Shown here one piece after another: positions 1-36,993 of a DNA stretch of 39,196 nt. The notes under the pieces were generated by a model, which was not told the DNA's origin, ran no database searches, and saw only the letters and a program-made list of their open reading frames with translations. Position numbers and translations under genes: made by a program. The first letter of the stretch is position 1. Each line of letters starts with the position of its first letter. Source of the DNA: an uncultured Planctomycetia bacterium (GTDB lineage Bacteria; Planctomycetota; CAYHQZ01). The stretch is taken from positions 1 to 39,196 of the forward strand of contig CAYHQZ010000004.1 of NCBI GenBank assembly GCA_964358555.1, written 5' to 3'.

Positions 1-3000
1 GCGAAACGATCCTCCCGGAAGATCCACGTCCTCTCCTTCACGCCGAGGCTCGCCGCGGCCGTCATCGCCCTCGCGGCGCTCCCCGCGGCGTGGATCGGTT
101 GGCGCCTCTGCTCGCCGCCCCCAGCGGCCTGCTCGCTTTTCTGGCGCGCGGACAACGAGATCCCGGCCGGCGGATCGTTCATTCCCTACGTGCAGGCGCG
201 GGATGCCTCGTCGGGCCGGCCGATGGAAGACGTCCGGATCCGGGCGAGCCTGGCGCCTTCGAACGGCGGCGACCGGCTCCCCCTCGGGGAGGGCCGGACC
301 GGGCCCGACGGAATGCTCGTCTGCCCGCCATGGAAGATCCCCGATGCCGAACCCGGAACCTACGGACTCGTCCTCGAAGCGGACGGCGGATCGGGGCGGG
401 GCCGGGATCGCCTGGAGCACGCGATTTCGATCGCCCCCGACGCGCGAGTCGCCCTCTCGCCTGATCGCCTCCGGGCAAGGCCCGGCGAGACAATCCGCGC
501 ACGCGTCCTCCTCGTCCGACCCGGAAAGGAAATCCCGATCCCCGGCTGGCCGGTCGCAATCGATCTCCTCGATCCCGCCGGAAACCGAATCGGGAGGGCC
601 GAGACCGTCACGTCGAAATTCGGCCTTGCCTCGGCCGAGTTTCCGCTGGATAGCGAAGCGCCCGAGGGGACCTACCGGATTCGCGCGGAATCGAAAAGGC
701 TCGCTTCGGAATGCGCCGTCGCGGTCCTCTCGTATCGGCTCCCCCCCTTCCGCGTCGCCGTGACGCCGGGGCGGAAATGGGCGGCCCCCGGGGGGGCGAT
801 CGAGGGGACCCTGGAGGCGCGGACGTTCGATGGCCATCCGGTGGGCGGCGCGAAGGGCGAGGTCCGGCTCGTGGGGCCGAAGGGAGAGGTCCTGCGGAAG
901 GCCGTGACGCAATTGGACAACGAAGGCCGCGGCCGCTTCTCCCTCGCGCCGGCCGGGACGGCCGAAACCTCCGCGCCATTCCTCCGCTGCCGGTTGGAGG
1001 CGGAGCTCGCGGATCCAGCCGGGCGGAAGACGGAGGGAGCAGCCTCGATCGCCTTGAGTGCCGCCCCTGTTTTTGTCACCGCCGTGCCGGAGGCGGGGGA
1101 CCTCGTCCGGGTCGGCGAAAACCGCGTCTATCTCGTCGCGAGGGATCCGGAGGGGGCGCCCTACCGGGGAGGCCTGGAGGTCTGGCGGGAAGGGACGAAT
1201 CCGGCAGATGCGGTTCCGGACAAGCTTTCGATCGAGACCGACGCCCACGGCGTCGCGGTCTACATGCTGAAATTCCCGAAGCCCCCGAAGGAGACGCTTC
1301 TGGTCCGGCCGAAAATCGCCTCCGCCGGAGAGCCGATCCGCATCCCGCTCGGCATCCGCCCGGACACGGCGTTGACGGAAGGCGCCCTCGGCGAGCAGGC
1401 CGGAAGGCTTCTTATCCGGACCGACAAGGCTTTCGTCCGGGCCGGCGAGACCATCTCGATCCGGGCGTTCTCGGGCGAGCCGGAAGGGATCGTCTCGCTC
1501 GCCCTGCGGGAACGCGGCCGGACCGTCGCCGTCGGATCGCTAACCCTTTCGGGTGGCGAAGGCCTGGCAACGCTCGCCGTGCCGGAAGGCGTTTCCGGCC
1601 TCGTCGCCCTGGACGCAACGCTCGATCCCAAGAAAGGCTGGACCGCCTGGACGGATCGGCGGCTCCTCCGCGTCCGGAAGGATTCCGCTCTCCGGATCTC
1701 CGCAACCGCCGACAAGCCCCGCTACCGCCCCGGCGAAACGGCGAGGATCTCGTTCTCGGTCACCGATGCATCGAACGCAGGCGTCCCCTCCGCCGTCTCC
1801 CTCGTCGCGGAGGACGAATCCCTCCTCGCCATCACAGGCAAGCACCCGGGCCTCGCCCAGGCGCTAGAGGCCCTCGATGCGAACATCCTTGAGAATCCGG
1901 ACCTGCCCCTCGATGAAGCGGCGAAGGCGAACGGAAAGGGCGATTCGATCGAGCGCGCCGCCCTCGCGGGGGTCAGGCAATCCAGCGCGGAGAACGCAAC
2001 GCAGTTGCTCGAACGCCTTGTAACAAAGGGCATCCTCCACCCCTCGATCGCCAAGGAAGTCTCCGATCTTTTCCTGCGGTCGGATTCGTATCTCACGCCG
2101 GAAGCGAAGGCGCAGGTGCTCGCAAACCTGCGCAATAGTCCGGAAGGAGGGCGATTGGCGGCCGCGTTTGAAATGCGAGGCCAGCCCGCAGGGGAAATCT
2201 GGCTGGATTCGGCGGTTCCCCAAAGGGAGAAGGCCGCGGCGGAGCGCAAGAAACTCCGAGGCGATTTGTTGGCGGCCCTTATGAATCTCGTCGCGGTACT
2301 CTCCATCGTTTTGGTCCTGCGACTGGTTTCGTCCTCCAGCCCCTGGATGGGGTCCGCGAACGAATACTGGCTGGCCACCACCGGAATCCCCTTGGTCACG
2401 GGCACGAGCCTCGTCGCATGCGTTGTCGGAATCGGCCTCGTCCCGGAATCCGCCTACGCAAGGCTCTTCGCGATCAATGTCCTTGCGATGGCCGCAGCGC
2501 ACGCCTTCCTGAGCGTCCGGGCCTGGCGGCTCTGGAATGCCGCTGACGAGTCCGCGCCTTTCTTCCTCACCCTCGGATTGAAGTCCTTTCTCCTGGACGC
2601 CTGGCTCCTTGCACTCGCGATATCCGTCCCGATCGGGCGTTGGGACCGGGAGGGCTTCCTGATCTTCTTTTTCGCCAACTTCGCAATCGCCGCGGCGATC
2701 CAGAGCGTTCGCTTGAGCCTCGGAAGAATCCTTGGCGCAACCGCGGGCCTGGGCTTCGTCCTGGCGATGCTCCTTCCCGCCCTCGGAAAGAGCCGATCCG
2801 AAGCCCGGAAATCGTCCGCGCGAAATGCCCTGAAACAGATCGAGACCGCCCTGGTGCTCGAGGACACGACCCCGGAGGCCGGTCACGCCGTGGTTTCTCT
2901 GAATCCCGCCCCTCCCCGCCTCCGTTCCGACTTCCGGGAGACGCTCGCGTTCGTGCCGGAGATCGTCACGGACGAGCAAGGAAGGGCTAGCCTCGCGCTG

Positions 3001-4992
3001 CCCGTTCCGGACTCGCTCACGGCCTGGCGGATCCTTGCCGACTCGGTCGCGGAAAGGGGCGGGACGGCATGGACGAGCCTCGGCGTTACCGTGACGCAGC
3101 CATTCTCGTTGGACCTTTCGCTCCCGACGGACGTGACGGCAGGAGACGTCCTTTGCGTCCCCGTCGTCGTCTCGAACCACGGCGAGCGCGCAAGGGAGGC
3201 GGAGGTGACGCTGAAGGTCTCCGGGGCGGAGCTCTCGGAGGGCGGGGCGACCCGGCGGATCTCCGTCTTGCCGAAATCCGTCGCCGCCGCGGAATTCATC
3301 CTGAAGTTCCCCCGGCCGGGCGATGCGCGCCTCGAGGTCTCGGTCCGCGCGGGCGTTGACGCCGACGCGGTCGTGCGAATCCTTCCCGTCCGGCCGGATG
3401 GCCGGCCCGTACATCTCTCGACCTCTTCCCTTGTCGACGGCGAGACCGTCCTCGAGCTCGACGTCCCGAAGGACGCCATCCCGGGAACGACCCGCTCGCG
3501 GCTCACGCTCCACCGCGGGCCGCTCACCCAATTCATCGAAGGACTCGACGGGATGCTCGTCGAGCCCTACGGCTGCTTCGAGCAGACGTCGTCCTGCAAC
3601 TATCCGAACCTGATGATCGTCCGCTACCTGCGCGCGAACGGGATCCGCAAGCCCGACATCGAGAAGCGCGCGATGGACTTCCTCGCCCGCGGCTACCAGC
3701 GTCTGCTTGGCTTCGAGGTGGGCTCGAAGAGCGGCGGGTTCTCGCTCTACGGCCAGGCCCCCGCGAGCCCCTGGCTCACCGCCTACGGCCTCATGGAATT
3801 CCAGGACATGGCGAAGGTCTATCCCGTAGACCCCGCCCTCCTCGATCGGATTCGCGCGTTTTTGAAGGGCGGGATGCGCGGCGACGGCTCCTTCGCCCTC
3901 GACGGCGGCGCGCACGAACGCGTCGCAGGCGGCCTTCTCGCCGAAACGGCCTACGTCGTCTGGGCGCTGGGTTCCGAGGCGCCCGAGACAAGCCTCCGCT
4001 TCCTCCGCGAGAATCTCCCCGAGATCCGGAAGGACGCCTACCTCTCGGCCCTCGCCGCGAACGCGCTGCGCGCGAAGGACCCGCAGACCGCGAACGCGCT
4101 CGCCCGGGGCTTGAAGGCGCTCGCATTGCGGGAAAAGATCGGCGGGAAGATCGTCCTGCGGATGTCGGCCGCCCGCTCGCTCGCCTGGGGCTACGGCGAG
4201 ACGGCCGGAATCGAGGCGATGGCGCTCTCGGCCCTCGCCGTCCTCGATTCTGGCGAAAGTTTGGACTTCGCCCGCGAGGCCCTCGCAAGCCTGCAATCGC
4301 AAATCGGCCCTCGAGGCGCTTGGCACTCGACGCACGCGACGGTCCTTTCGCTCAAGGCGCTGGAGCGGGCTTCCATCGCCGGCCGGAACATGGGGCCTGC
4401 AACCGCGACCGTTCGCGTCGGAGAAGAGGCCCCCAAAACCCTCCGGATCCCCGCGGAGGAAACCGCGGCGCCTGTCGTCCTGCCGATCGAGCTCAAGCCG
4501 GGTCCGAACCGGATCCGGATCCGCACGGAAGGCGCGCCGCTGGCCGCAAGGCTTTCCTGCGAGACTTACGTCCCCTGGGCAGCCGCGGAAGCCCCTTCCG
4601 AGCCTGCGGCGAATCCCCTCCTCGCCCATGTCCGCTATGACAAAACGGAGGCGGGCCAAGGCTCGGCCGTCTCTGGAACGCTCGAAATCTCCGCGAAGGA
4701 AAGAACCGTGGAGGTCCCCATGGTCGAATGGGGCCTCCCCGCCGGATTCGAGCCGTCGGCGGCCGACCTGGACGCCGCCAAGGCGGACGGCCTCCTCGAG
4801 CGCTGGGAAATCTCCGGGCGAACGCTGCGGCTCTACTTCCCGGACCTTCCCCCCGGCCCGCCGAAAACCCTCCGCGTCCGGTTCACAGCCACCTCGAAAG
4901 GCTCTCTCGCCGCCCCCGCCGGCCGGGCCTACGAGTATTACCGGCGGGAAGCAGCCGTCGCCCTCCCACCCGTCCGGTTCACGATTCGGTGA
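1..4992 (+). CDS. Bacterial alpha-2-macroglobulin family protein (MG2/A2M/thioester), 5'-truncated by the window edge
   Basis: Frame 1 is open from nt 1 (AKRSSRKIHVLSFTPRLAAAVIALAALPAAWIGWRL, a TM-like anchor), so the true start lies upstream of the window. MG motifs (TSKFGLASAEFPL, YRPGET), the post-bait motif RLRSDFRETLAFVPEIVTDEQG...PDSLTAW, thioester PYGCFEQ (GCFEQ at 3571-3585) and C-terminal AYEYY are present. Confidence 0.92.
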   Translation, partial: AKRSSRKIHVLSFTPRLAAAVIALAALPAAWIGWRLCSPPPAACSLFWRADNEIPAGGSFIPYVQARDASSGRPMEDVRIRASLAPSNGGDRLPLGEGRTGPDGMLVCPPWKIPDAEPGTYGLVLEADGGSGRGRDRLEHAISIAPDARVALSPDRLRARPGETIRARVLLVRPGKEIPIPGWPVAIDLLDPAGNRIGRAETVTSKFGLASAEFPLDSEAPEGTYRIRAESKRLASECAVAVLSYRLPPFRVAVTPGRKWAAPGGAIEGTLEARTFDGHPVGGAKGEVRLVGPKGEVLRKAVTQLDNEGRGRFSLAPAGTAETSAPFLRCRLEAELADPAGRKTEGAASIALSAAPVFVTAVPEAGDLVRVGENRVYLVARDPEGAPYRGGLEVWREGTNPADAVPDKLSIETDAHGVAVYMLKFPKPPKETLLVRPKIASAGEPIRIPLGIRPDTALTEGALGEQAGRLLIRTDKAFVRAGETISIRAFSGEPEGIVSLALRERGRTVAVGSLTLSGGEGLATLAVPEGVSGLVALDATLDPKKGWTAWTDRRLLRVRKDSALRISATADKPRYRPGETARISFSVTDASNAGVPSAVSLVAEDESLLAITGKHPGLAQALEALDANILENPDLPLDEAAKANGKGDSIERAALAGVRQSSAENATQLLERLVTKGILHPSIAKEVSDLFLRSDSYLTPEAKAQVLANLRNSPEGGRLAAAFEMRGQPAGEIWLDSAVPQREKAAAERKKLRGDLLAALMNLVAVLSIVLVLRLVSSSSPWMGSANEYWLATTGIPLVTGTSLVACVVGIGLVPESAYARLFAINVLAMAAAHAFLSVRAWRLWNAADESAPFFLTLGLKSFLLDAWLLALAISVPIGRWDREGFLIFFFANFAIAAAIQSVRLSLGRILGATAGLGFVLAMLLPALGKSRSEARKSSARNALKQIETALVLEDTTPEAGHAVVSLNPAPPRLRSDFRETLAFVPEIVTDEQGRASLALPVPDSLTAWRILADSVAERGGTAWTSLGVTVTQPFSLDLSLPTDVTAGDVLCVPVVVSNHGERAREAEVTLKVSGAELSEGGATRRISVLPKSVAAAEFILKFPRPGDARLEVSVRAGVDADAVVRILPVRPDGRPVHLSTSSLVDGETVLELDVPKDAIPGTTRSRLTLHRGPLTQFIEGLDGMLVEPYGCFEQTSSCNYPNLMIVRYLRANGIRKPDIEKRAMDFLARGYQRLLGFEVGSKSGGFSLYGQAPASPWLTAYGLMEFQDMAKVYPVDPALLDRIRAFLKGGMRGDGSFALDGGAHERVAGGLLAETAYVVWALGSEAPETSLRFLRENLPEIRKDAYLSALAANALRAKDPQTANALARGLKALALREKIGGKIVLRMSAARSLAWGYGETAGIEAMALSALAVLDSGESLDFAREALASLQSQIGPRGAWHSTHATVLSLKALERASIAGRNMGPATATVRVGEEAPKTLRIPAEETAAPVVLPIELKPGPNRIRIRTEGAPLAARLSCETYVPWAAAEAPSEPAANPLLAHVRYDKTEAGQGSAVSGTLEISAKERTVEVPMVEWGLPAGFEPSAADLDAAKADGLLERWEISGRTLRLYFPDLPPGPPKTLRVRFTATSKGSLAAPAGRAYEYYRREAAVALPPVRFTIR

Positions 4993-5133: not shown

Positions 5134-5403
5134 CTATCCATGCGAATTCGCGGCGACGTAGGCGTGGAGGACCGCGTTGATCCGCGTCTGGTAGCCGCGA
5201 CCGTGCCGCTTGAACCACCGGATCACATCGGGATCGAGGCGAATGGAGACAACGGACTTCCGCTGGGGCATCCGGACGACCATCTTCGAGAAAACGGCCG
5301 GATCGATGGGCGGGATGTCGGAAAAGTCGATCTCCTCGTCCTTCATCGCTTTGAGCCGATCCCAGTCAGTCCTTGATTTCCCGTGCGTAAATGCGTTCTT
5401 CAT
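5134..5403 (-). CDS. brnA: BrnA-family antitoxin (89 aa)
   Basis: TDWDRLKAMKDEEIDFSDIP...VSIRLDPDVIRWFK..GRGYQTRINAVL is the BrnA pattern. Start reassigned to ATG 5403, overlapping the brnT 3' end. Confidence 0.87.
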   Translation of the reverse strand: MKNAFTHGKSRTDWDRLKAMKDEEIDFSDIPPIDPAVFSKMVVRMPQRKSVVSIRLDPDVIRWFKRHGRGYQTRINAVLHAYVAANSHG

Positions 5404-5644
5404 GCTTGCTCGCCTTTCGGGCTGAAATGATCCGGATGACTTGTTCGGCCGGCTCGGTAAATACCACCACCGCCAGAACATCGCCCAACCACCCGATCCC
5501 CACCCATCGAGTCTCCCTGTAATCTTTCCGACGATCCAGAAAAGTCACCATGGGGTGTTCGAACATGGAGGCGACATCCATGAAATCGATGCCGTGATTC
5601 CGCCGATTGAGCCGGTTCTTGGCCTCGTCCCATTGGAACTCCAC
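5366..5644 (-). CDS. brnT: BrnT-family ribonuclease toxin
   Basis: FQWDEAKNRLN..NHGIDF...DYRETRW.GIG...VVVFTE...IRIISARKA is the BrnT pattern. Confidence 0.9.
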   Translation of the reverse strand: MEFQWDEAKNRLNRRNHGIDFMDVASMFEHPMVTFLDRRKDYRETRWVGIGWLGDVLAVVVFTEPAEQVIRIISARKASKHEERIYAREIKD

Positions 5645-5651
5645 GTCTTGG

Positions 5652-5680
5652 ATTGTATATACGTTTTATGTTGACGTCAA
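5652..5680 (-). promoter_or_regulatory. Sigma70-type promoter of brnTA, likely leaderless
   Basis: Minus strand reads TTGACG-N17-TACAAT-N7-GTG(start). The -35 lies in the palindrome TTGACGTCAA. Confidence 0.75.
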
Positions 5681-5708
5681 GCCACCCCTCCGACAACGAT
5701 CTCCGTTA

Positions 5709-7150: not shown

Positions 7151-7385
7151 CTGAACTTTTGCGTCGGGGGGTAAAACCGGGCACGGGCGAGGGACGGGGG
7201 CTCGGCTCTTGCTCCCGGTCTCCGCGCGGTCCACGGCAGGCATACGAATTCATGGCGTTGGACCGTGCTCCGACAGGTCGCCACGATCCGAGCCCCCACC
7301 CCTCGCCCTTCTTGTTATTCGTACCTAGGAATACAGGGGTCGGCGCCGCCATGCCGCAATCGAGAGGTCGGACGCAAAAGCTCAG
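7151..7385. mobile_element. 235-bp non-autonomous element with 15-bp TIRs and a 6-bp flanking direct repeat
   Basis: CTGAACTTTTGCGTC (7151-7165) and GACGCAAAAGCTCAG (7371-7385) are 14/15 inverted. TAACTC lies immediately outside both ends (7145-7150, 7386-7391). Confidence 0.55.
7174..7308 (-). ncRNA. Candidate structured ncRNA motif of unknown class, copy 1
   Basis: 21-bp outer stem (7185-7205/7288-7308), 10-bp inner stem (7224-7233/7259-7268) and two potential pseudoknots. 88/99 ungapped identity to 39087-39185. Strand is inferred from G-U pairs. Confidence 0.5.
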
Positions 7386-9577
7386 TAACTCGCCCGTTGC
7401 GCGGAGCGAATCGCAAACCGCGTGCGGCCCTCGGGAAGGTCCGCCTCGACCTCCTCGCCGACGCGCCGCCCGAGAAGGGCGCGGCCAAGGGGGGCAAGGT
7501 AGGAAATCGCGTCCTGGCCCTCCTGGTCCCACGGCCCGAGCACGAAGATCGAGCGCTCGCCGCCGGTGGCGACGTTCGCGATCACCGCCCGGACCCCCGG
7601 GACGACGACCCCGTCCGGAATCGACTGGTCCTCGATCGCACGCACCTTCGAGAGCTCCTCCGAAAGTTCCCGGGCCCGCTGGGTAAGCAGGCCGCGGGCC
7701 CGGATGGCGCCCTCCCATTCGGAGTTCTCGGAGAGATCGCCGTGGGAGGCGGCCTCCCCGATCTGGCGGCTGTTCTCCGGGATCGTCACCTGGACCAAGA
7801 CCCGATGGGCCTCCCGCTGGCGCTCGATGCCGGCGCGGGTGCAATAGATCCAATTCTCCTCCCACCAGGGGCGGTCCTCCCGGACCACGAATTCCGGAAA
7901 GCGTTTCAAAAGCGACGCGCGGACGTAGACCGCAAGATCGACCGGGAAGTCCCCCGTCCGCTCAACGACGTCGAGGGCCGATCGGGCGACCGTCCGGTCG
8001 AGGGACTCGCAGAGCCGCCGGATGACGGTCCCGCGGCTGTCCGTCAGGAAGGAGACGAATTTCTTGAGCAGGGCCGCGTTCTCGCGGCTCGAACGGCGGG
8101 TCGTGGAAAGGTATTCGCAAAGCGACAGGACGCCGCGCAGGCGATCCGCGGGGGGCGGAATGTCCCCCGCCTCGGCGAGTTCCCCCTTTTCGGCGAGACG
8201 GATGAAAGCGGCGAGCGCCCCCGGACCGCGGGTGGCGGCGCCGAGCAGCATTTTGAAAGCCCCTCGGACGTCCGCCGCGCGGCCCTCGGACAGCAGGCAC
8301 TCGATGGCGCTTTCGGCGGCGTCCCAGCCGAGGGCGGGCAGGGCGGCGCGCAGGGACTCGGCCCACGAGTCGGGCGCCGCCTTTCGCAACGCGTCGAGGG
8401 CCCATCGGCGTTCCCGGTCGCCATCCAGGGCGCCGAGGAATGCGGCGATGGAGCCGCTCCCGCCCCGCTGGATATCCTTCACGACCGCCTCCGAGGGCGG
8501 GTCGGACGCCCGCCCGTAATGCTCGAGGACGTGGGCGGCGAGGAAGCGGCCGGCGGGCGGATCCTGGCCGGCGCGGGCGGCCGCGCGGGCCGCGAGGGCG
8601 TCGAGGATCGGGGCGCGGGAGGGCTCGTCGGCGTCGGCGAGGAAACGCCTCGCGGCCTCCACGGCCTCGGCCAGCGTCCCCGCCGCGGCGACGGCCACGA
8701 CGCCCTCGTCTGCGAGCGACAGCGGACGCTCGCGCAGCCCGAACACGGGCTTGGCGTTCGTGCCCTGGATGGAGATGTCGGCGGCCCGGGCCGCCTCCGT
8801 CCGGGCGCGACGCCACCAGGATGGCCACTCCGATTCGGTCAACACGCTCCCGATGAGGTCCTGCTTCACCTGCGTGACGCTCGCCTCCCCGCCCCGGATC
8901 CGGACGATCCGCCGGATGGCCTCCGCGGGACGGTCTTGAACGAGTTCCCGGAGCGCCGCTGGCCGGAGGATTCGCATCGCGCGCAAGTCGTCCGGATGGA
9001 GGGGGTCCAAAAACTCGATGGCCGACACCAGGGGAAACACCCGCTGCTCCCCGCCGACGAACCGGACCTCGAGTTCGCCCGTGGCCGCCCGGACGGACTC
9101 GATGACCCCCACCCCCCAGCCGCGGGGGTGGTGGACGGCCGCGCCGGCCACGAACCGCCGCAGCGTCCTAAACCGCCGCATGGCCTCGGAAAGCGGGGCG
9201 CCGCCCCCGATCCCCGACAGATCCATCCAGCGTCCGAACATCGCCTCGGCCGCATAGGAGCGCTCCAACGCCCGCTGGACGAGCGGCCGCATCGCCGACT
9301 CGTCCCCCCCGTGGGCAAGGATGGCCTCGGCGATCCGGAGGAGTTCGGCCGCGGCCCCCTTCTGGTCGAGCGATTCCGCGAGTAGCGCAAGCAGCGGCGC
9401 CGCCCGATCTTCCGCGGCCGTCCCGCGGAGGGCGTCGGCGGCCTCCAGGAACACGGGCGCGGGCACGTTTTTCGGCAGCGCCTCCAGCCAGGCGCTCTCC
9501 AGTGCATCGAACTGCGACGCGCGTGCCAGACCGGCGAGATCAACGGACGGCATGAAGGGGCGGTAGTGTGGAGGCAA
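7382..9577 (-). CDS. greA: Transcription elongation factor GreA with long N-terminal extension
   Basis: C-terminal EAASHGDLSENSEW, LGPWD and ISYLAPLGRALLGRRVGE are Gre motifs, preceded by about 570 aa of mostly helical extension. The start may be ATG 9553. Confidence 0.85.
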   Translation of the reverse strand: MPPHYRPFMPSVDLAGLARASQFDALESAWLEALPKNVPAPVFLEAADALRGTAAEDRAAPLLALLAESLDQKGAAAELLRIAEAILAHGGDESAMRPLVQRALERSYAAEAMFGRWMDLSGIGGGAPLSEAMRRFRTLRRFVAGAAVHHPRGWGVGVIESVRAATGELEVRFVGGEQRVFPLVSAIEFLDPLHPDDLRAMRILRPAALRELVQDRPAEAIRRIVRIRGGEASVTQVKQDLIGSVLTESEWPSWWRRARTEAARAADISIQGTNAKPVFGLRERPLSLADEGVVAVAAAGTLAEAVEAARRFLADADEPSRAPILDALAARAAARAGQDPPAGRFLAAHVLEHYGRASDPPSEAVVKDIQRGGSGSIAAFLGALDGDRERRWALDALRKAAPDSWAESLRAALPALGWDAAESAIECLLSEGRAADVRGAFKMLLGAATRGPGALAAFIRLAEKGELAEAGDIPPPADRLRGVLSLCEYLSTTRRSSRENAALLKKFVSFLTDSRGTVIRRLCESLDRTVARSALDVVERTGDFPVDLAVYVRASLLKRFPEFVVREDRPWWEENWIYCTRAGIERQREAHRVLVQVTIPENSRQIGEAASHGDLSENSEWEGAIRARGLLTQRARELSEELSKVRAIEDQSIPDGVVVPGVRAVIANVATGGERSIFVLGPWDQEGQDAISYLAPLGRALLGRRVGEEVEADLPEGRTRFAIRSAQRASY

Positions 9578-31290: not shown

Positions 31291-32550
31291 ATGATGGAAA
31301 GAACCCCGGCCGGACGCGATCCCGCGGAATGCCCCCGCCTGCGCCCCATCGACGCGAAGCCCGTCCGGATCGGCGGCTCGGCGTTCGTCGAGGTCCGCGA
31401 CCCGATGGGCTACACCGACGTAGGCCTCCGGATGCCGCCGGCCGCCTTTTTCCTGGCCAACCTCTTCGACGGCGAGACGAGCCTCGAGGAGATCCAGGCC
31501 GCCTTCGCCCGCCAGTTCGGCGAGGACGTCCCGCGCTCGCAAATCCTCGATATCGCCGCGCGGCTCGACGAGGCGGGGTTCCTCGAAGGCGAGCGCTTCG
31601 AGAAGCGGAAGGCCGACGCCGTCTCGATGTTCCGGGCGATGCCCGCGCGGCTCCCCAGCCATGCGGGCCTCTGCTACAGCGAGGACCCGGACGCGCTGAA
31701 GAAGGAGCTGGACGCCTACTTCGATCCCCCGGGCGGCCCGGGCTTCCCCGACCCGCTCGCGGAGGGCGCGATTCCGCGGGGGATCATCGCCCCCCACATC
31801 GACCCGCCGCGCGGCGGGCATCTCTACGCGCGCGCCTACAAATGCGTCGCCGAGCGCGGCAGGCCCGTCCGGACGTTCGTCATTCTCGGCACAGGCCACG
31901 CGGCCCCAGGGTGCGCCTTCATCCCGACCCGCAAGGACTTCGCCAATCCCCTGGGGCTTTTGCCTATCGAGAATCGCGCCGTGGACGCCTTCGCGAACGC
32001 CATGGGCCCCGGGGCCTTCGAGCACGAGTGGCTGCACAAGTCCGAGCACTCCATCGAGTTCCAGTGCCTGTTTTTGCGCCACGCCCTCGGAGGCGATCAT
32101 CCCTTCCGGATCGTGCCCATCCTCTGCGGCTCGTTCGCGGGGATCATCGAGGAGGGCCGCGACCCCTCCGACGACGAGGACGTCACGCGCGCGATCGACG
32201 CGCTCCGCGCCGCCATCGACGCAGCCGAAAAACCCGTCTGCGTCGTCGCGGGCGTGGACCTCGCCCACATGGGCCATCGCTTCAACGACCCCGAGAGCCC
32301 GAACCCCGCCCTGCTCAAGGTCCTCGAATCCAAGGACCGCGCCACCCTGGACCGGATCGCCGCCGGCGACGCCGCCGGCTTCTACTGGGACGTCGCCCTA
32401 GAGCGCGACCGCCGCAAGATCTGCGGCCTCTCCGCCATCTACACCCTCCTGCGCCTCCTCAACGGCCCGAAGGGCAGCGTCCTCGGCTACGCCCAGGCCG
32501 TCGAAAACGACACCGAGTCCGTCGTCACCTTCGGCGCGGCGGCGTTCTGA
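31291..32550 (+). CDS. amrB: Memo-family protein (AmmeMemoRadiSam protein B) with N-terminal PqqD/RRE-like domain
   Basis: HAG.CY, IIAPHID..RGG..YA.AY, ILGTGH, EHSIEFQ..FL, DLAHMG, ICG. The N-terminal LFDGETSLEEI...LDEAGFL segment is winged-helix-like. Confidence 0.85.
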   Translation: MMERTPAGRDPAECPRLRPIDAKPVRIGGSAFVEVRDPMGYTDVGLRMPPAAFFLANLFDGETSLEEIQAAFARQFGEDVPRSQILDIAARLDEAGFLEGERFEKRKADAVSMFRAMPARLPSHAGLCYSEDPDALKKELDAYFDPPGGPGFPDPLAEGAIPRGIIAPHIDPPRGGHLYARAYKCVAERGRPVRTFVILGTGHAAPGCAFIPTRKDFANPLGLLPIENRAVDAFANAMGPGAFEHEWLHKSEHSIEFQCLFLRHALGGDHPFRIVPILCGSFAGIIEEGRDPSDDEDVTRAIDALRAAIDAAEKPVCVVAGVDLAHMGHRFNDPESPNPALLKVLESKDRATLDRIAAGDAAGFYWDVALERDRRKICGLSAIYTLLRLLNGPKGSVLGYAQAVENDTESVVTFGAAAF

Positions 32551-32782
32551 ACTCTCCCCGGCTTCCGCCAAGAGCCCAGAAACGCACCCACGTCAAGGAG
32601 TTATTTGACTGTTTTACAACGTCCCCTTTGTCCCGGGCCAAGGACGCGGCCCGGCGTGCCCACGGGGCCAGGAAACGGCCGGGGGCGGGCGCCTGTGGCT
32701 GCCTCTCGGGGCGCGCCGCGATCCCTAGCCATCCGATGACAACGGATCGCGGGCTCCGAACCCCCTCCGATCCGCTCCCTCG

Positions 32783-33439
32783 TCATGGCTTCTCCTTCTC
32801 GCGGTGCATGTTGTCGTCATTCTTCGCCGGGTTCAGGCTGGGACTTGGTTTTTGCACGGGGCGCTCGGGTCGAGTCTCTCCCGTATGCGGATCGAGGGAG
32901 AACGATTCCCACCGTGAAAGCTGCATATCCCCAAGAACCCGCCTGTCATTCCCGCGTCCCCTAAGCAACATATCGCTTTCGACTAGAAGCCGGTCTCCCT
33001 CCCATCGCTTTACCCGGATTCCACCGGGATATGGATCTACCTGCAACACAACGTTCCACTGATCCTCAAGGAGATCCTCCACATCAACCACCACAAGCCC
33101 AGAATCTCCCTCGCCCACCGTCGCCACCGCGAGCCATCTACCACTATCAGAAATCTTGAGGTTCATAACGGACCGCCCTCCACTCGCCGTGCCGATCAGC
33201 TTATTCTCGTTTCCCAGCAAGAACCACTGTGGCCCCTCACGCGTACAATTTATCACCAGCAGCATTCTTCCGTCGCCCATCTCCTCGTACGCGATTCCAC
33301 TCTCTGTAGCCACTCGTCCTACATAGATATCAAGGGGGTGGCCCTGCGCCTCACATCCCGTCACGCCTATCGATATTAGGATTATCAGCCTACGGAAGAG
33401 ACATCCTGCCACAAGACAAAACGCCGTTTGAGAATACAC
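32783..33439 (-). CDS. Hypothetical exported protein, possible lipoprotein (lower GC)
   Basis: Open frame with hydrophobic LIILISIGVTG-C (lipobox-like) and a beta-rich body (SDSGRWLAV..VGEG, DPYPGGI...WEGDRLLVESDMLL). Start uncertain (33439 or 33445). Confidence 0.5.
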   Translation of the reverse strand: MYSQTAFCLVAGCLFRRLIILISIGVTGCEAQGHPLDIYVGRVATESGIAYEEMGDGRMLLVINCTREGPQWFLLGNENKLIGTASGGRSVMNLKISDSGRWLAVATVGEGDSGLVVVDVEDLLEDQWNVVLQVDPYPGGIRVKRWEGDRLLVESDMLLRGRGNDRRVLGDMQLSRWESFSLDPHTGETRPERPVQKPSPSLNPAKNDDNMHREKEKP

Positions 33440-33483
33440 GACCAATCCAAGATGCTTTTCAAAGATCCGCGCTGTCGGTGGCG

Positions 33484-33746
33484 TCACTGCGCCCTCACCA
33501 TGACCGTGACGGTTTGAGGCTTGGAGCGCGCGTAGGAATCCTGCGCAACGAACGTAAATGTGTCTGTCCCAACGAAGTCTTCCCTCGGTGTGTACGTGAC
33601 GCAGCGTCATCCGCGCCAGAGGCGACGGCGAACGTTGCCGTCTCGGTCGAGGCGAGAGCGGTTCCGCCAAAGGGCGGAGAGAGCGGGAGGAACAGGAGCG
33701 AGAGGAAAAGGGAGAGGCACAGGCGGTTCCGCGCGGCTGGAGTCAT
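33484..33746 (-). pseudogene. Collapsed remnant of a large secreted Ig-like-repeat protein
   Basis: MTPAARNRLCLSLFLSLLFLPLSPPFGGTALA-STETATFAVASGADDA (signal peptide and domain start) is joined out of frame to VTYTPREDFVGTDTFTFVAQDSYARSKPQTVTVMVRAQ* (Big_9/tandem-95-like C-terminal half). Confidence 0.65.
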
Positions 33747-34327
33747 CCGGCGATTCCCTTCTCGGTGCGAGGGCGCTGAAGTGGACGGAGCATAGATAGA
33801 AGGATGGCGAGTCGTCTGACTCATTGGAGACTTCTCCCGGGGGACTTCCCATCGGCAAAGGTTCCGGTGGGTCGTGGGCCGCATGAGGATCTGCGTTCTA
33901 AATATTCAAAGTAACGTTCTCGCGGGGCACGGGCAAAGGAAAACAGAGAAAGTTCCGAGGCTTGGCGTTTTCCATGCCGAACCGGTGCCCCGGAGGGTTG
34001 TTAGCAAGGACGCAGCTGCCCTGTCATAGCCCGTCCCGTGACATGCCCTACGGCGCCCGAAGAAATCCGCTGGGCGCGGCACCGGGCATGTGTCCGCTAC
34101 CCGGAGCACGGCGTGGGCCTCGCGTTGCCCTCTGCATGGCGACGGCGCGGATGTGCACTTCGCTCCATGCACTGCCACCGGTCTTCTTCGCCTTGGTGCG
34201 ATGCCTGCGCTTCGCTCCCGTACCAATCGCCCCCGCCCTTTGGCCCCTTCCTTATATACAGGACACATGGGGGACGTACCTCGCAACCTTCTCGAATTCC
34301 AATGGTTATGGAACAGTTACGCCTCTC

Positions 34328-34729
34328 CTAAATCCAGATCACGTCCACCTCGCCCTCGACTTCCTTGAATTCCTTGTCCCCCGTCACGAGGGAAGCCTTG
34401 CGGGCCTTCGCTAGGGCGGCGGCGAAGCAGTCGGCGTAGGCCATTTTTCGGGTTGCCTTCAGTTCGGCGGCCATTTTCGCGAGCGGCCGGTCCGCATCCA
34501 CGATCTCGATGGGAAGCGTCTCGAGGATGCGGATCATTCGCTCCCCGACCTCGCGCCCGCCGGTGCGAACGGCGTTGTAGTAAACCTCGCCCCAGTTGAC
34601 GACCGAGAGGAGGAGGGGATGGTCACGATCCTTCGCTTGCTTCACCAGTTCTGCGACCTTGGCCCCTCCGGGTTCGTCCTCCAAGAAGGCGATGACGGCG
34701 AAGGAATCGAGGACCTTCTGCGCGCTCAT
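34328..34729 (-). CDS. vapC: VapC-family PIN-domain toxin
   Basis: VLDSFAVIAFLEDEPG, SVVNWGEVYY, MAYADCFAAALA, LVTGDKEF. Confidence 0.92.
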   Translation of the reverse strand: MSAQKVLDSFAVIAFLEDEPGGAKVAELVKQAKDRDHPLLLSVVNWGEVYYNAVRTGGREVGERMIRILETLPIEIVDADRPLAKMAAELKATRKMAYADCFAAALAKARKASLVTGDKEFKEVEGEVDVIWI

Positions 34730-34956
34730 CGATCCCGCTCCCGCTTCCGATCCTCGACGAGGGACCGCAGGATCTTACCGCCGGTCTTGAGCGAGCCCCG
34801 CAGGCTGTCGATGTACTCATCCGTGACGGGCCGAAGGACAATCTCGTCGGCGCGCTCGATGAAGCATACCTGGGTGCCTTTCTTGATCCCGTGGCGCCGG
34901 CGAAGCCGGGAGGGAATCACGACCTGTCCCTTCGTGGTCACGACCGCGCTTTCCAT
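34726..34956 (-). CDS. AbrB/MazE/SpoVT-family antitoxin
   Basis: MESAVVTTKGQVVIPSRLRRRHGIKKGTQV.F. SD GGAGG precedes the start; ATGA overlap with vapC. Confidence 0.88.
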   Translation of the reverse strand: MESAVVTTKGQVVIPSRLRRRHGIKKGTQVCFIERADEIVLRPVTDEYIDSLRGSLKTGGKILRSLVEDRKRERDR

Positions 34957-34990
34957 GCCTGCCTCCTTCCGAAGTATGCCTTTCAAATAA

Positions 34991-35019
34991 AGTATACGTT
35001 TTTGTTGAAAGTAAGTCAA
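34991..35019 (-). promoter_or_regulatory. Sigma70 promoter of the AbrB-VapC operon
   Basis: Minus strand TTGACT-N17-TATACT in an AT-rich patch, overlapped by the imperfect palindrome TTTCAA...GTATAC...TTGAAA (34981-35010). Confidence 0.8.
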
Positions 35020-35117
35020 AAATAAAATAGGCACCCAAAGAAGGAATCGGCCCCATCACTCCATCCCTGCCGCCATCTCCGGAATCATTCCGACGGCAAC
35101 GAAAGGATGATGCCCAA

Positions 35118-35146
35118 ACTTGAGATCGCAAATTGCGATCTCAAGT
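35118..35146. repeat. Perfect 14-bp inverted repeat downstream of treZ
   Basis: ACTTGAGATCGCAA-A-TTGCGATCTCAAGT. Confidence 0.9.
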
Positions 35147-35160
35147 CGCCCGGCTCGCCT

Positions 35161-36993
35161 TCACGCTCCTGGTTCGCGCACGTAAAGAGCGTAGGCGCGC
35201 GCCGGGAGGCGCAGGGCGGCGGGGCCGTCGGAGCGGAGGCGGGCGGGAAGCGGGCTGCCGGGGCCGTTCCAGCGGGCTTCGGCGGAGTCGAGGATTTTTC
35301 GCCACCCGCCCGCGGGCAGCGGGAATACGGCTTCCGACGGGGCCTCGCCGAACGAGAGGATCCCGAAGGCCTCCGAGCCTTCCCCCCGGCGCCGCCAGAA
35401 GACGGCGCTCGCCGGTTCGAGAACGCCGGTCTCCTGGCGCTCGTCGGTCGGGCGGGACAGCGCGGGGATTTCCCGGCGGAGCCGCAGCAGTTCCCGGTGC
35501 CATTCGAGGAGCGTCCGGTTCGGCTCGCGGTTTCGGAGCGACGCGTCCAGCCTCGAGCGCTCGAACGTGGATTCGGCCTGCGGGTCGGGCGGGACGCCGG
35601 AGAGGCCGGAGGCCGCGTATTCCGCGCGCCGGCCCCGGCGCACGGCGTCGGCGAGGCCTTCGTCCAGGTAGCTCGTGAAGAACGGAAACGGCGCCGTCTC
35701 GCCGTATTCCTCGCCCATGAACAGAAGCGGCAGGAACGGCGAATGGAGGACCGCGCCGGCCGCGAGCTTCAATCCCTCGAGCCCGACAAGCGAGGCGAGC
35801 CGCTCCCCCCTTCCGCGGTTGCCGATGTGGTCGTGGTTCTGGACGCTCGAGACGAACCGGAACGGCGGGAGATCGTCGGAGGGCCCGCCGAACCGCCGGC
35901 GGCGGTAGCGGGAATATTCCCCCGTGAGGCCGAATCCCTCGCGGAGCGTTTTCGCGAGGATGCCGAGCGAGCCAAAATCCTCGCAGGGGCCGGCGCGATC
36001 ATTCGTCAGGAGGGAATGGAGCGCGTGGCGCAGGTCCTCGGTCCAGACGGCGTCGAGGCCGAGGCCGCCGGCCGCCGCGGGCCTCACAAGGCGGGCGTCG
36101 TTTCGGTTGTCCTCGGGGAAGAGGAACACGCTCCGCCCCAGCCGCGCCCCGGCCGCGCGGACCGCATCCGCGAGCTCCCGGAGGAACGGCTGCGGGGATC
36201 GATCGAACATCGCGTGGGTCGCGTCCAGCCGGAGGCCGTCGAAATGGAATTCCTCGATCCAATACAGCGCGTTTTCGATGAAGAAGCGCCGGACCTCGTC
36301 GGAATCCGGGCCATCGAGGTTCACGGCCGGGCCCCAGGGCGTGGAGCAGCGGTCCGAGAAATACGGGCCGAACTCGGCGAGGTAGTTGCCCTCGGGGCCG
36401 AGGTGGTTGTAGACGACGTCCAGGACCGCGGCGAGCCCGCGGAGGTGGCAGGCCTCCACGAACCGCTTCAACCCCGCCGAACGGCCGTAGGTGTTCTGGG
36501 GCGCGAAGGGATGGACCCCGTCGTATCCCCAGTTCCGCGCCCCCGGAAACTGCGCGACGGGCATCAGCTCGACGGCCGTGACGCCGAGCGCGCGCAGATC
36601 GTCGAGCCTCCCCGCCGCCGCGTCGAACGTCCCCTCGGGCGTGAACGTCCCGATGTGGATTTCATAGAAGACGTGGTCCGGAAGCGCGATCCCCCGCCAG
36701 CCTGCGTCCCGCCACGGAAACGCGGACTCGACCACCTCGGAGGCGCGGTGCACGCCGTCCGGCTGCGAGCGCGACGCGGGGTCCGGCCGCTCCTCGCGAT
36801 CGTCCAGGCGGAAAAAATACCGCGCCCCCGGCGCGAGGCCGTCTGCGACGGCCTCGAAATGCCCGGCCCCCGCAGCCTCGAGCGGGATCCGCCGCTCCAC
36901 GGGCACGGCCACGAGAACCTCGGCCTTCTTCGCGAGCGGCGCCCAGACCCGGAACCGGACGCGCCCGCCCCCCAGCCATTCGGCTCCGATCAC
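35161..36993 (-). CDS. treZ: Malto-oligosyltrehalose trehalohydrolase (GH13)
   Basis: FRVWAP, DPASRSQPDGVH, RNWGYDGV, DVVYNHLGPEGNYL, GLRLDATH, QNHDHIGNR, LFMGEEYGE..PF.FF. Confidence 0.93.
   Translation of the reverse strand: MIGAEWLGGGRVRFRVWAPLAKKAEVLVAVPVERRIPLEAAGAGHFEAVADGLAPGARYFFRLDDREERPDPASRSQPDGVHRASEVVESAFPWRDAGWRGIALPDHVFYEIHIGTFTPEGTFDAAAGRLDDLRALGVTAVELMPVAQFPGARNWGYDGVHPFAPQNTYGRSAGLKRFVEACHLRGLAAVLDVVYNHLGPEGNYLAEFGPYFSDRCSTPWGPAVNLDGPDSDEVRRFFIENALYWIEEFHFDGLRLDATHAMFDRSPQPFLRELADAVRAAGARLGRSVFLFPEDNRNDARLVRPAAAGGLGLDAVWTEDLRHALHSLLTNDRAGPCEDFGSLGILAKTLREGFGLTGEYSRYRRRRFGGPSDDLPPFRFVSSVQNHDHIGNRGRGERLASLVGLEGLKLAAGAVLHSPFLPLLFMGEEYGETAPFPFFTSYLDEGLADAVRRGRRAEYAASGLSGVPPDPQAESTFERSRLDASLRNREPNRTLLEWHRELLRLRREIPALSRPTDERQETGVLEPASAVFWRRRGEGSEAFGILSFGEAPSEAVFPLPAGGWRKILDSAEARWNGPGSPLPARLRSDGPAALRLPARAYALYVREPGA

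Follow-up and report, generated by a model that had tools for sequence, protein, structure and literature searches.

The stretch analysed here, a window of 39,196 nucleotides (nt) from an uncultured Planctomycetia bacterium, forms the start of contig C4 in a fragmented draft assembly (469 contigs, 85.6% complete). It opens with a gene that encodes an alpha-2-macroglobulin (A2M) fused to a predicted anti-sigma-type domain, and the bait site of this A2M is occupied by a module of six hydrophobic helices. The gene (nt 1..4992, plus strand) is a single open frame of 1663 amino acids (aa) that is truncated by the contig start, and about 99 more N-terminal codons were located on contig C218 of the same assembly. 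The window protein is referred to as P0001; other P-numbers denote database relatives, L-numbers genomic loci and G-numbers genomes. No other genome was available for comparison from the order of the source genome.

The domain order of P0001 was established along the plus strand. A first membrane anchor (TM1, aa 17-37, nt 49..111) follows the predicted cytoplasmic anti-sigma domain and lies within a hydrophobicity peak at aa 8-37, the only peak of P0001 outside the insert above 1.6 on the Kyte-Doolittle scale. The N-terminal macroglobulin (MG) domains extend up to the pre-bait strand (nt 112..1839) and include the Pfam domain MG2 (aa 160-232, 2e-20) and a weak A2M_BRD match (aa 472-610; 17.3 bits, under the cut-off of 22.7). 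They end in the pre-bait motif VAEDESLLAITG (aa 602-613, nt 1804..1839). After the insert, the MG domain resumes at the post-bait motif RLRSDFRETL (aa 973-982, nt 2917..2946) and is followed by the Pfam A2M domain (aa 981-1071, nt 2941..3213; 1.1e-16, over its cut-off as MG2 is), the thioester domain TED (aa 1179-1455, nt 3535..4365; 6.8e-27) and a C-terminal MG domain of the receptor-binding type (aa 1574-1650, nt 4720..4950; A2M_recep, 22.8 bits, cut-off 21.7). A bMG10 match was under its cut-off (20.8 against 26.2 bits). The GCFEQ thioester (aa 1191-1195, nt 3571..3585) is intact and was found to be invariant in all 13 members of the clade formed by P0001 and its closest homologues. An earlier, sequence-only reading of this DNA had quoted the pre-bait and post-bait motifs, GCFEQ and six hydrophobic stretches, and all of these strings were located in the 1663-aa frame.

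The two bait-flank motifs enclose an insert of 358 aa (aa 614-971), in close agreement with the earlier estimate of about 360. The span of nt 2260-2790 assigned to it at that time covers the membrane part, which comprises six hydrophobic helices at aa 756-925 (nt 2266-2775), whereas the whole insert is larger. Each of the six exceeded a 19-residue Kyte-Doolittle mean of 1.6, with peaks of 1.61-2.49. The insert begins with a soluble, mostly helical linker (aa 614-737, nt 1840..2211), and its first residues, HPGLAQAL, are conserved across the family. Helix 1 (aa 756-776, nt 2266..2328) and helix 2 (aa 790-814, nt 2368..2442) were assigned from hydrophobicity, alignment and AlphaFold2. Three invariant polar residues lie in the next helices, namely His834 in helix 3 (aa 822-839, nt 2464..2517), Asp866 in helix 4 (aa 854-876, nt 2560..2628) and Gln901 in helix 5 (aa 886-903, nt 2656..2709). 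Helix 6 with its predicted periplasmic extension (aa 908-958, nt 2722..2874; hydrophobic stretch aa 910-925) resembles a degenerate N-terminal helix of the type IV prepilin kind. It was also observed that a helical soluble sub-insert of about 70 columns stands ahead of the first bait helix in seven of the 13 clade members and is absent from the other six.

In order to place the insert, P0001 was compared with solved structures using phmmer. Residues 968-1321 aligned with human A2M 699-1081, and the post-insert motif (968-982) paired with a human stretch containing VRKYFPETW, which we take to be the residues directly after the human bait. Residues 988-1377 aligned with E. coli ECAM (YfhM) 953-1344 (E 3.3e-16). 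The available text of PMC4498604 gives the disordered bait of ECAM as Arg923-Leu942, and the offset of the alignment puts the post-insert motif of P0001 in or beside these residues. Since the motif aligns with the human VRKYFPETW stretch and falls in or beside the ECAM bait, the module lies at the bait site, as the sequence-only reading had claimed.

A search with the whole protein returned 168 relatives, of which the 11 best scored 1034-1304 bits and belong to Planctomycetota where labelled. Together with one homologue found by the insert alone, these are the 12 closest homologues, and with P0001 they make up an alignment of 13 rows. In each of the 12, which are 40-47% identical to P0001, the module is found in the same position, in line with the expectation that homologues would retain it. 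They also share an N-terminal domain of about 100-150 aa, a transmembrane counterpart of TM1 at aa 111-158 and, in the bait, five or six peaks of hydrophobicity. Asp736, His834, Asp866 and Gln901 are invariant in the 13 rows, and the flanks of the module are conserved. Based on the same alignment, AlphaFold2 predicted six long helices in a 511-aa construct, with a predicted local distance difference test (pLDDT) of 75-92, and a six-helix bundle for the module alone (mean pLDDT 79.7, predicted template modelling score 0.66); the insert helices had pLDDT values of 75-95 across both models. The even helix count noticed in the letters was borne out, with six helices here and two or six in most relatives.

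The upstream part of the gene was recovered from C218, the reverse complement of which ends in 29 bases that correspond, in frame and with one mismatch, to window positions 1-29. This contig encodes an extracytoplasmic function (ECF) sigma factor (Sigma70_r2 3.7e-14, r4_2 6.2e-10), and the sigma stop overlaps (ATGA) the ATG of a 107-aa open frame running into the 29-base overlap. Over 77 aa, this frame shares 43% identity with the N-terminal part of P0002, a full-length homologue (E 2e-12), and a contig of run X1 reaches 766 nt past the window start. The same gene pair was present on one 165-kb contig of genome G090, the single match to most of the insert among 400 other genomes sampled in the phylum. 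Here, a sigma open reading frame (ORF) closely similar to that of C218 ends a few bases beyond the first ATG before the anti-sigma-like N-terminus of a six-helix A2M, the start having been located by eye. The N-domain, TM1, the six bait helices and GC.EQ all recur in the G090 A2M, a stop-to-stop frame of 1959 aa. The anti-sigma-type N-terminus and the upstream ECF sigma gene that had been predicted from the truncated gene were therefore both encountered, on C218 and in G090. The N-domain of the P0001 clade was matched by hhalign to the N-domains of relatives with two bait helices (probability 93.8%, E 1.8e-7), several of which carry the motif HxxxCxxC. The NCBIfam model 'antisigma' matched two-helix relatives with E values of 1.4e-5 to 2.6e-4, at 21-25 bits against a curated cut-off of 100. 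On these sequence grounds, the N-terminus of P0001 is assigned as an anti-sigma-type domain paired with an ECF sigma gene.

The association was followed in 85 database relatives, where an anti-sigma-type N-terminus was scored if the first hydrophobic peak lay at or beyond aa 60, P0001 itself being assigned via C218. Bait helices were detected in 36 of the 36 relatives with such an N-terminus, and none of the 36 helix-less relatives had one. An independent genomic sample was obtained from species-representative genomes by means of two thioester-domain patterns. More than 591 relatives were found, and the 80 loci retained come from Planctomycetota, Anaerolineae and other Chloroflexota, Acidobacteriota, Verrucomicrobiota, Armatimonadota and further lineages. 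The addition of 10 earlier loci and the removal of two duplicates left 81 open frames with GC.EQ, and both bait-flank motifs were present in 62, which were considered evaluable. Bait-site membrane helices were found in 41 of these 62. The membrane domain in the bait, which the sequence-only reading had described for this one protein, is hence present as stated and is not a one-off. Seventeen loci carried an anti-sigma match: none was free of bait peaks, 16 had one to three and one had at least four, so that bait helices occurred in 17/17, and a sigma gene lay upstream on the same strand in 14. Among the 45 loci without an anti-sigma match, 21 had no peaks, 11 had one to three and 13 had at least four, with a same-strand upstream sigma gene in one; these locus counts are rough, given that the peaks were scored with a simple hydrophobicity threshold and that the genomes are related and not independent. 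In a FastTree tree of the non-insert columns (midpoint root, no support values), at least four anti-sigma lineages were found with helix-less clades interspersed. The two-helix anti-sigma form has a cultured carrier, Singulisphaera sp. Ch08 (locus L083).

Relatives have, between the same two motifs, a hairpin of two helices, another six-helix module in proteins that start with a signal peptide, or a helix-less GspG-like domain. The bait site across the family accordingly accepts membrane or pseudopilin modules. The anti-sigma six-helix and two-helix modules were aligned by hhalign with a probability of 87.6% (E 3.5e-6), over a stretch that includes 12 residues of the post-bait motif, and the anti-sigma and signal-peptide six-helix modules with a probability of 17% (E 0.0014). 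Such links between module types are moderate or weak, and common descent of the modules is no more than a possibility. Among helix-less relatives, P0023 (aa 794-845), P0026, P0040, P0052 and P0058 display the pseudopilin GspG signature DPWG...GPDG in the bait region; P0023 gave the sole match over the cut-off among four helix-less relatives scanned (Pfam T2SSG, 23.3 bits, cut-off 21). At the other extreme, 10 hydrophobic peaks were counted between the bait-flank motifs of L073, and seven in the interval before the thioester of L031, for which no pre-bait motif was found; larger membrane modules may exist. An ECF sigma match upstream and no anti-sigma profile match were recorded for L017 and L074 (six peaks each) and for L031 (seven). 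These three loci have longer N-termini and may carry a different cytoplasmic domain.

When the insert was searched against its own genome, aa 908-958, that is helix 6 and about 30 aa after it, matched two tandem ORFs on contig C7 (51% identity, E 3.2e-9; 47% identity, E 6.2e-6). Both ORFs start with a classical prepilin leader and a hydrophobic stem, and TIGR02532 matched the ORF of the 47% match with 35.5 bits (cut-off 16.3). In 23 other genomes of the phylum, nearly all matches were limited to the helix-6 part of the insert and fell in frames of 145-726 aa, the exception being a weak G089 match at query 52-111. Within the A2M family, the second helix resembles a DUF1559/GspG stem in 7 of 22 two-helix relatives, by alignment reading; for P0021 a pilin stem is supported by SBP_bac_10 (26.1 bits, cut-off 23.3) and by GspG positions 2-67 (E 1.1e-6). 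Judged from these similarities, helix 6 descends from a prepilin-type helix that is now degenerate. At the positions equivalent to Gly(-1) of the peptidase site and to Glu(+5), P0001 has Arg905 and Arg909; the alignment indicates that the motif is not kept in the 13 clade members, and no TIGR02532 or other NCBIfam match was obtained in aa 885-982 of P0001. The six hydrophobic helices had been recognised correctly in the earlier reading, and the prepilin-type nature of the last one had been missed. The tandem prepilin-like genes of C7 correspond to L015 976-2088 and 2268-2894; their leaders and stems are near-identical and they are the closest matches to helix 6 in the genome.

The remainder of the module gave no comparable match. 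Pfam searches with the insert alone, at E values up to 10, returned chance-level matches only (Ribosomal_S20p 0.018, LapA_dom 0.13), and a word-based search among proteins of 914-2911 aa returned none. A phmmer search of the insert against 1.84 billion representatives yielded one match, a full-length family member, and no stand-alone membrane protein; the ESM Atlas had no usable match to the module. In fold searches, the 511-aa model and the 258-aa module model retrieved generic helical bundles only, with best Z values of 10.5 and 10.3, respectively, against a helical-noise level of about 13, and with Foldseek E values of at least 0.01 and at least 0.06. A likeness to six-helix haem proteins (cytochrome b561 with Z 8.4, Dcytb, STEAP, NOX5) was considered and discarded, the rows being weak and the module having a single invariant His. 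No origin for helices 1-5 emerged from the fold and sequence searches.

A soluble stretch of 46-97 aa remains in the clade between helix 6 and the post-bait motif (46 aa in P0001; small or polar fraction 0.61-0.80). Nowhere is the protein less conserved: the most frequent residue accounts for 0.29-0.34 of the rows, compared with 0.60-0.72 for the MG and thioester domains. At its end lies a hypervariable low-complexity linker (aa 955-971, nt 2863..2913), which ranges from 17 to 54 aa across the 13 rows and in which the commonest residue averages 0.29. In the AlphaFold2 model of the module, residues 955-992 had no secondary structure (pLDDT about 50), and only this last part of the stretch was unstructured. 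The soluble linker is probably the cleavable bait, rather than the helices. The sequence-only reading had drawn the trigger region itself into the membrane; given the soluble stretch, a cleavable bait need not be membrane-embedded. According to the available text of PMC4498604, cleavage of ECAM untethers the segment just after the bait, and this segment then dislodges the thioester domain from its place on the C-terminal MG domain. The equivalent segment of P0001 starts at the post-bait motif, so that, by analogy, an ordinary soluble cut beside the membrane would suffice.

An even number of helices would bring the two halves of the split MG domain together again in the periplasm, and the macroglobulin body is expected to be periplasmic. 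Prepilin stems run from the cytoplasm outward and have a basic stretch on the outer side. A prepilin-like helix 6 therefore fits a periplasmic body, and would also explain the basic flank after this helix despite the positive-inside rule. A complex prediction for TM1 (aa 1-62) and the module (aa 735-960) scored 0.02, which is evidence neither way.

Taken as a whole, the results are best explained by a membrane-threaded, sigma-linked A2M that senses proteases through its bait module, a reading to which we would give about an even chance. The gene product would be an inner-membrane protein of about 1760 aa, co-transcribed with the ECF sigma factor, in which a cytoplasmic zinc-less anti-sigma domain is followed by TM1, the periplasmic N-terminal half of the A2M, the 358-aa module and the C-terminal half with its intact thioester. 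The module itself would consist of the helical linker, the six-helix membrane bundle and the hypervariable linker. A protease entering the periplasm would cleave the exposed hypervariable linker beside the membrane; the cut would untether the post-bait segment as in ECAM, the protein would snap to its activated form, and the thioester would bind the protease covalently, while both fragments would remain membrane-anchored. The membrane module could then relay the rearrangement to TM1 and to the anti-sigma domain, whether by a direct effect or because TM1 becomes accessible to regulated proteolysis, and the sigma factor would be freed for a transcriptional response. We thus infer a receptor or signalling role, as the sequence-only reading had done. 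In its most specific form, P0001 would be a one-shot protease receptor, in which the bait cut springs the trap, fixes the protease covalently at the membrane and frees the ECF sigma factor via bait helices packed on the anti-sigma anchor, on a scaffold derived from a captured pseudopilin stem. This version is offered tentatively, its chances being somewhat short of even.

Several observations weigh against a sigma-linked protease sensor. Of the 85 database relatives, 13 have bait helices, two or six, but no anti-sigma-type N-terminus, and bait helices also occur in 24 of the 45 loci without an anti-sigma match, many of them from Anaerolineae and of the signal-peptide form; since there are helix-bearing members without an anti-sigma domain, sigma signalling cannot be the sole purpose of the module. 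The counts behind the association are phylogenetically clustered. The N-domain of the clade has no Pfam or NCBIfam match of its own, as scanned with the C218 fragment, and lacks the zinc ligands, the consensus LAFxLGALDD...LIRGRLE being devoid of Cys; many anti-sigma domains lack zinc. The connection of C218 to the window is a probable one, based on 29 bases, homology and synteny. Regarding topology, the bundle loops expected to be cytoplasmic contain 69 Lys and Arg in 533 residues and the other loops 17 in 219, yet the periplasmic flanks are the most basic (46/195 and 37/215), so the positive-inside charge count alone does not settle the orientation. The prepilin parallel accounts for the C-terminal flank only. 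Finally, no RNA run containing the stretch was listed.

The main alternative to a sensor, which we regard as a real but unlikely possibility, is that the module is an anchor only. It would fix the trap and both cleavage fragments to the cytoplasmic membrane, in place of the lipid anchor of ECAM, and would carry no signal, the sigma/anti-sigma pair using another cue or merely regulating expression. The helix-bearing members without an anti-sigma domain just mentioned (13/85 and 24/45) fit such a function, and ECAM is likewise kept at the inner membrane (PMC4498604, available text). On the other hand, the anti-sigma members are already anchored by TM1, yet all of them have bait helices (36/36 and 17/17), and the invariant polar residues within helices 3-5 go beyond what a passive anchor needs.

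Alternatively, the trigger may be a protease within the membrane or next to it, for instance a prepilin peptidase or a site-2 protease, that cuts in the module or at its edge. The prepilin descent of helix 6 speaks for this idea, as does the alignment of the 22 two-helix relatives, where Gly is read at the peptidase position in four (P0019, P0020, P0021, P0050) and Gly(-1) and Glu(+5) are both kept in two (P0021, P0050). Complement C3, C4 and C5 are processed at the same site, which also speaks for it. Against it, P0001 has Arg905 and Arg909 at these positions, the motif is unconserved in the 13 clade members, the TIGR02532 match is absent from aa 885-982, and the hypervariable soluble linker offers an ordinary bait. 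The intramembrane trigger raised by the sequence-only reading is thus improbable, and nothing was found that points to one.

A third explanation, display on a pilus, is still less probable and would surprise us. In this case, the prepilin-like helix would be a working stem, and the C-terminal half of the A2M would be mounted on a pseudopilus or type IV pilus in the manner of a modular pilin. The homology of helix 6 and the GspG-like globular domain at the same site in helix-less relatives (P0023) would agree with it, and modular pilins with bulky modules exist, according to the accessible part of bioRxiv 10.1101/2021.01.27.428410. However, Glu(+5) and the cleavage site are lost in the clade, the helix is internal with five helices before it, and no pilus genes were found within the window.

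The integrity of the locus was assessed with Logan contigs. Those from two samples of one study tiled nt 1-3070 and bridged each insert junction, without any joint skipping the insert, although both samples may be the assembly's own source and are then not independent; a 250-nt contig from a second study corresponded to nt 2292-2541, a part of the helix region, with two mismatches. An artefact, be it a chimeric assembly, a frameshifted pseudogene or two genes read as one, might be suspected in a draft of 469 contigs and 85.6% completeness with the gene truncated by a contig end, but is hardly credible given the 1663-aa frame that stays open with A2M domains on both sides of the insert, the same layout in 13 sequences of different origin, the contigs of two samples across all junctions, the additional contig of the second study and the same gene on a 165-kb contig of G090.

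The sigma gene and the P0001 gene form the functional unit. The 3' neighbours are convergent and unrelated, and encode a BrnA antitoxin, a radical-SAM MqnC-like enzyme, a GreA-domain protein, a GT4 glycosyltransferase, MlaD, Der and a HEAT-repeat protein; pbpC was not among the neighbours of the P0001 gene, to which the search for it was confined. The BrnA-type antitoxin ORF (window 5134-5481, minus strand, 2.6e-16) lies directly 3' of the macroglobulin gene, where the G+C content is 0.65, compared with about 0.70-0.73. It is overlapped by an ORF at 5400-5696 (minus strand) that has no Pfam match and could be the toxin partner. The GreA/GreB domains are found at aa 577-724 of a 731-aa open frame (window 7382-9577, minus strand), which has either a long N-terminal extension or an over-called start in high-GC DNA. 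At window 32001-36000 the G+C content decreases to 0.62-0.65, against about 0.70-0.75 nearby, and no ORF passed the high-GC3 filter at 32550-36990.

No description of an A2M fused to an anti-sigma domain, or of membrane helices in a bait, was encountered in the literature searched, which mostly excludes subscription journals. Papers that contain both 'anti-sigma' and 'macroglobulin' did not deal with a fusion, as far as titles and abstracts indicate, and the main text of the ECF classification paper PMC7826278 contains no occurrence of 'macroglobulin', 'A2M' or 'MG2', while its supplements could list such a domain. A CAGE preprint deals with another protein.

Bacterial A2Ms are known as passive periplasmic protease traps with a soluble bait, and we know of no earlier membrane-spanning insert at the bait site in this superfamily. 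The present arrangement appears to be new as a variant of known parts and, to judge from the sequenced loci, widespread in uncultivated lineages. Many uncultivated Planctomycetota, Chloroflexota and members of other lineages have an A2M whose chain crosses the membrane at the bait site, and a large subset of these proteins use the entire trap as the sensor part of an anti-sigma factor. If signalling holds, bacteria would detect proteolytic attack on the envelope via the irreversible thioester switch used by animal complement and A2M; if the one-shot receptor is true, thioester capture would be coupled directly to transcription in bacteria. The connection of bait modules with pseudopilins may also be relevant to DUF1559, a very large family in Planctomycetota.

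Compared with known systems, P0001 shares with ECAM and the Salmonella A2M, both type I bacterial thioester A2Ms, a body of MG domains, a TED with CxEQ, a C-terminal MG domain and a bait within one MG domain. As ECAM is, it would be periplasmic and kept at the inner membrane, the periplasmic side being probable for P0001. The ECAM anchor is a lipid, which agrees with the depositor's name 'lipoprotein YfhM'. In the available text of PMC4498604, ECAM has its membrane anchor at the N-terminal end, a soluble and largely disordered bait, and a gene paired with pbpC. In contrast, the N-terminus of P0001 is a predicted cytoplasmic domain of about 100 aa with a membrane helix instead of a lipoprotein anchor, its bait site holds the six-helix membrane module, and its partner gene encodes an ECF sigma factor, with no pbpC nearby.

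The insertion point in a split MG6 domain is shared with complement C3, C4 and C5 and with human A2M. At that point C3, C4 and C5 carry a small helical bundle, the anaphylatoxin domain. To our knowledge, the inserts of these proteins and of human A2M are soluble and none is membrane-spanning, unlike that of P0001. With the Class I (zf-HC2 or RsiW-type) anti-sigma factors, P0001 has in common an N-domain, about 90 aa long, ahead of a single membrane helix, and an overlap of its gene start with the ECF sigma stop; it differs in that the zinc ligands (HxxxCxxC) are absent and the sensor is a whole thioester macroglobulin re-entering the membrane six more times. Helix 6 and the 30 aa after it are similar to the N-terminal helices of type IV prepilin-like, DUF1559 and GspG proteins, and the two-helix relatives match the N-terminal parts of DUF1559 and GspG. 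Unlike in prepilin-like proteins, this helix is internal, has lost the cleavage/methylation motif and is not followed by a globular pilin domain in the P0001 clade. Finally, CD109 is a membrane-held protein of the thioester family and a sequence relative (E 3.3e-28), tethered by a C-terminal glycosylphosphatidylinositol anchor instead of through its bait region, and it has no known link to transcription.

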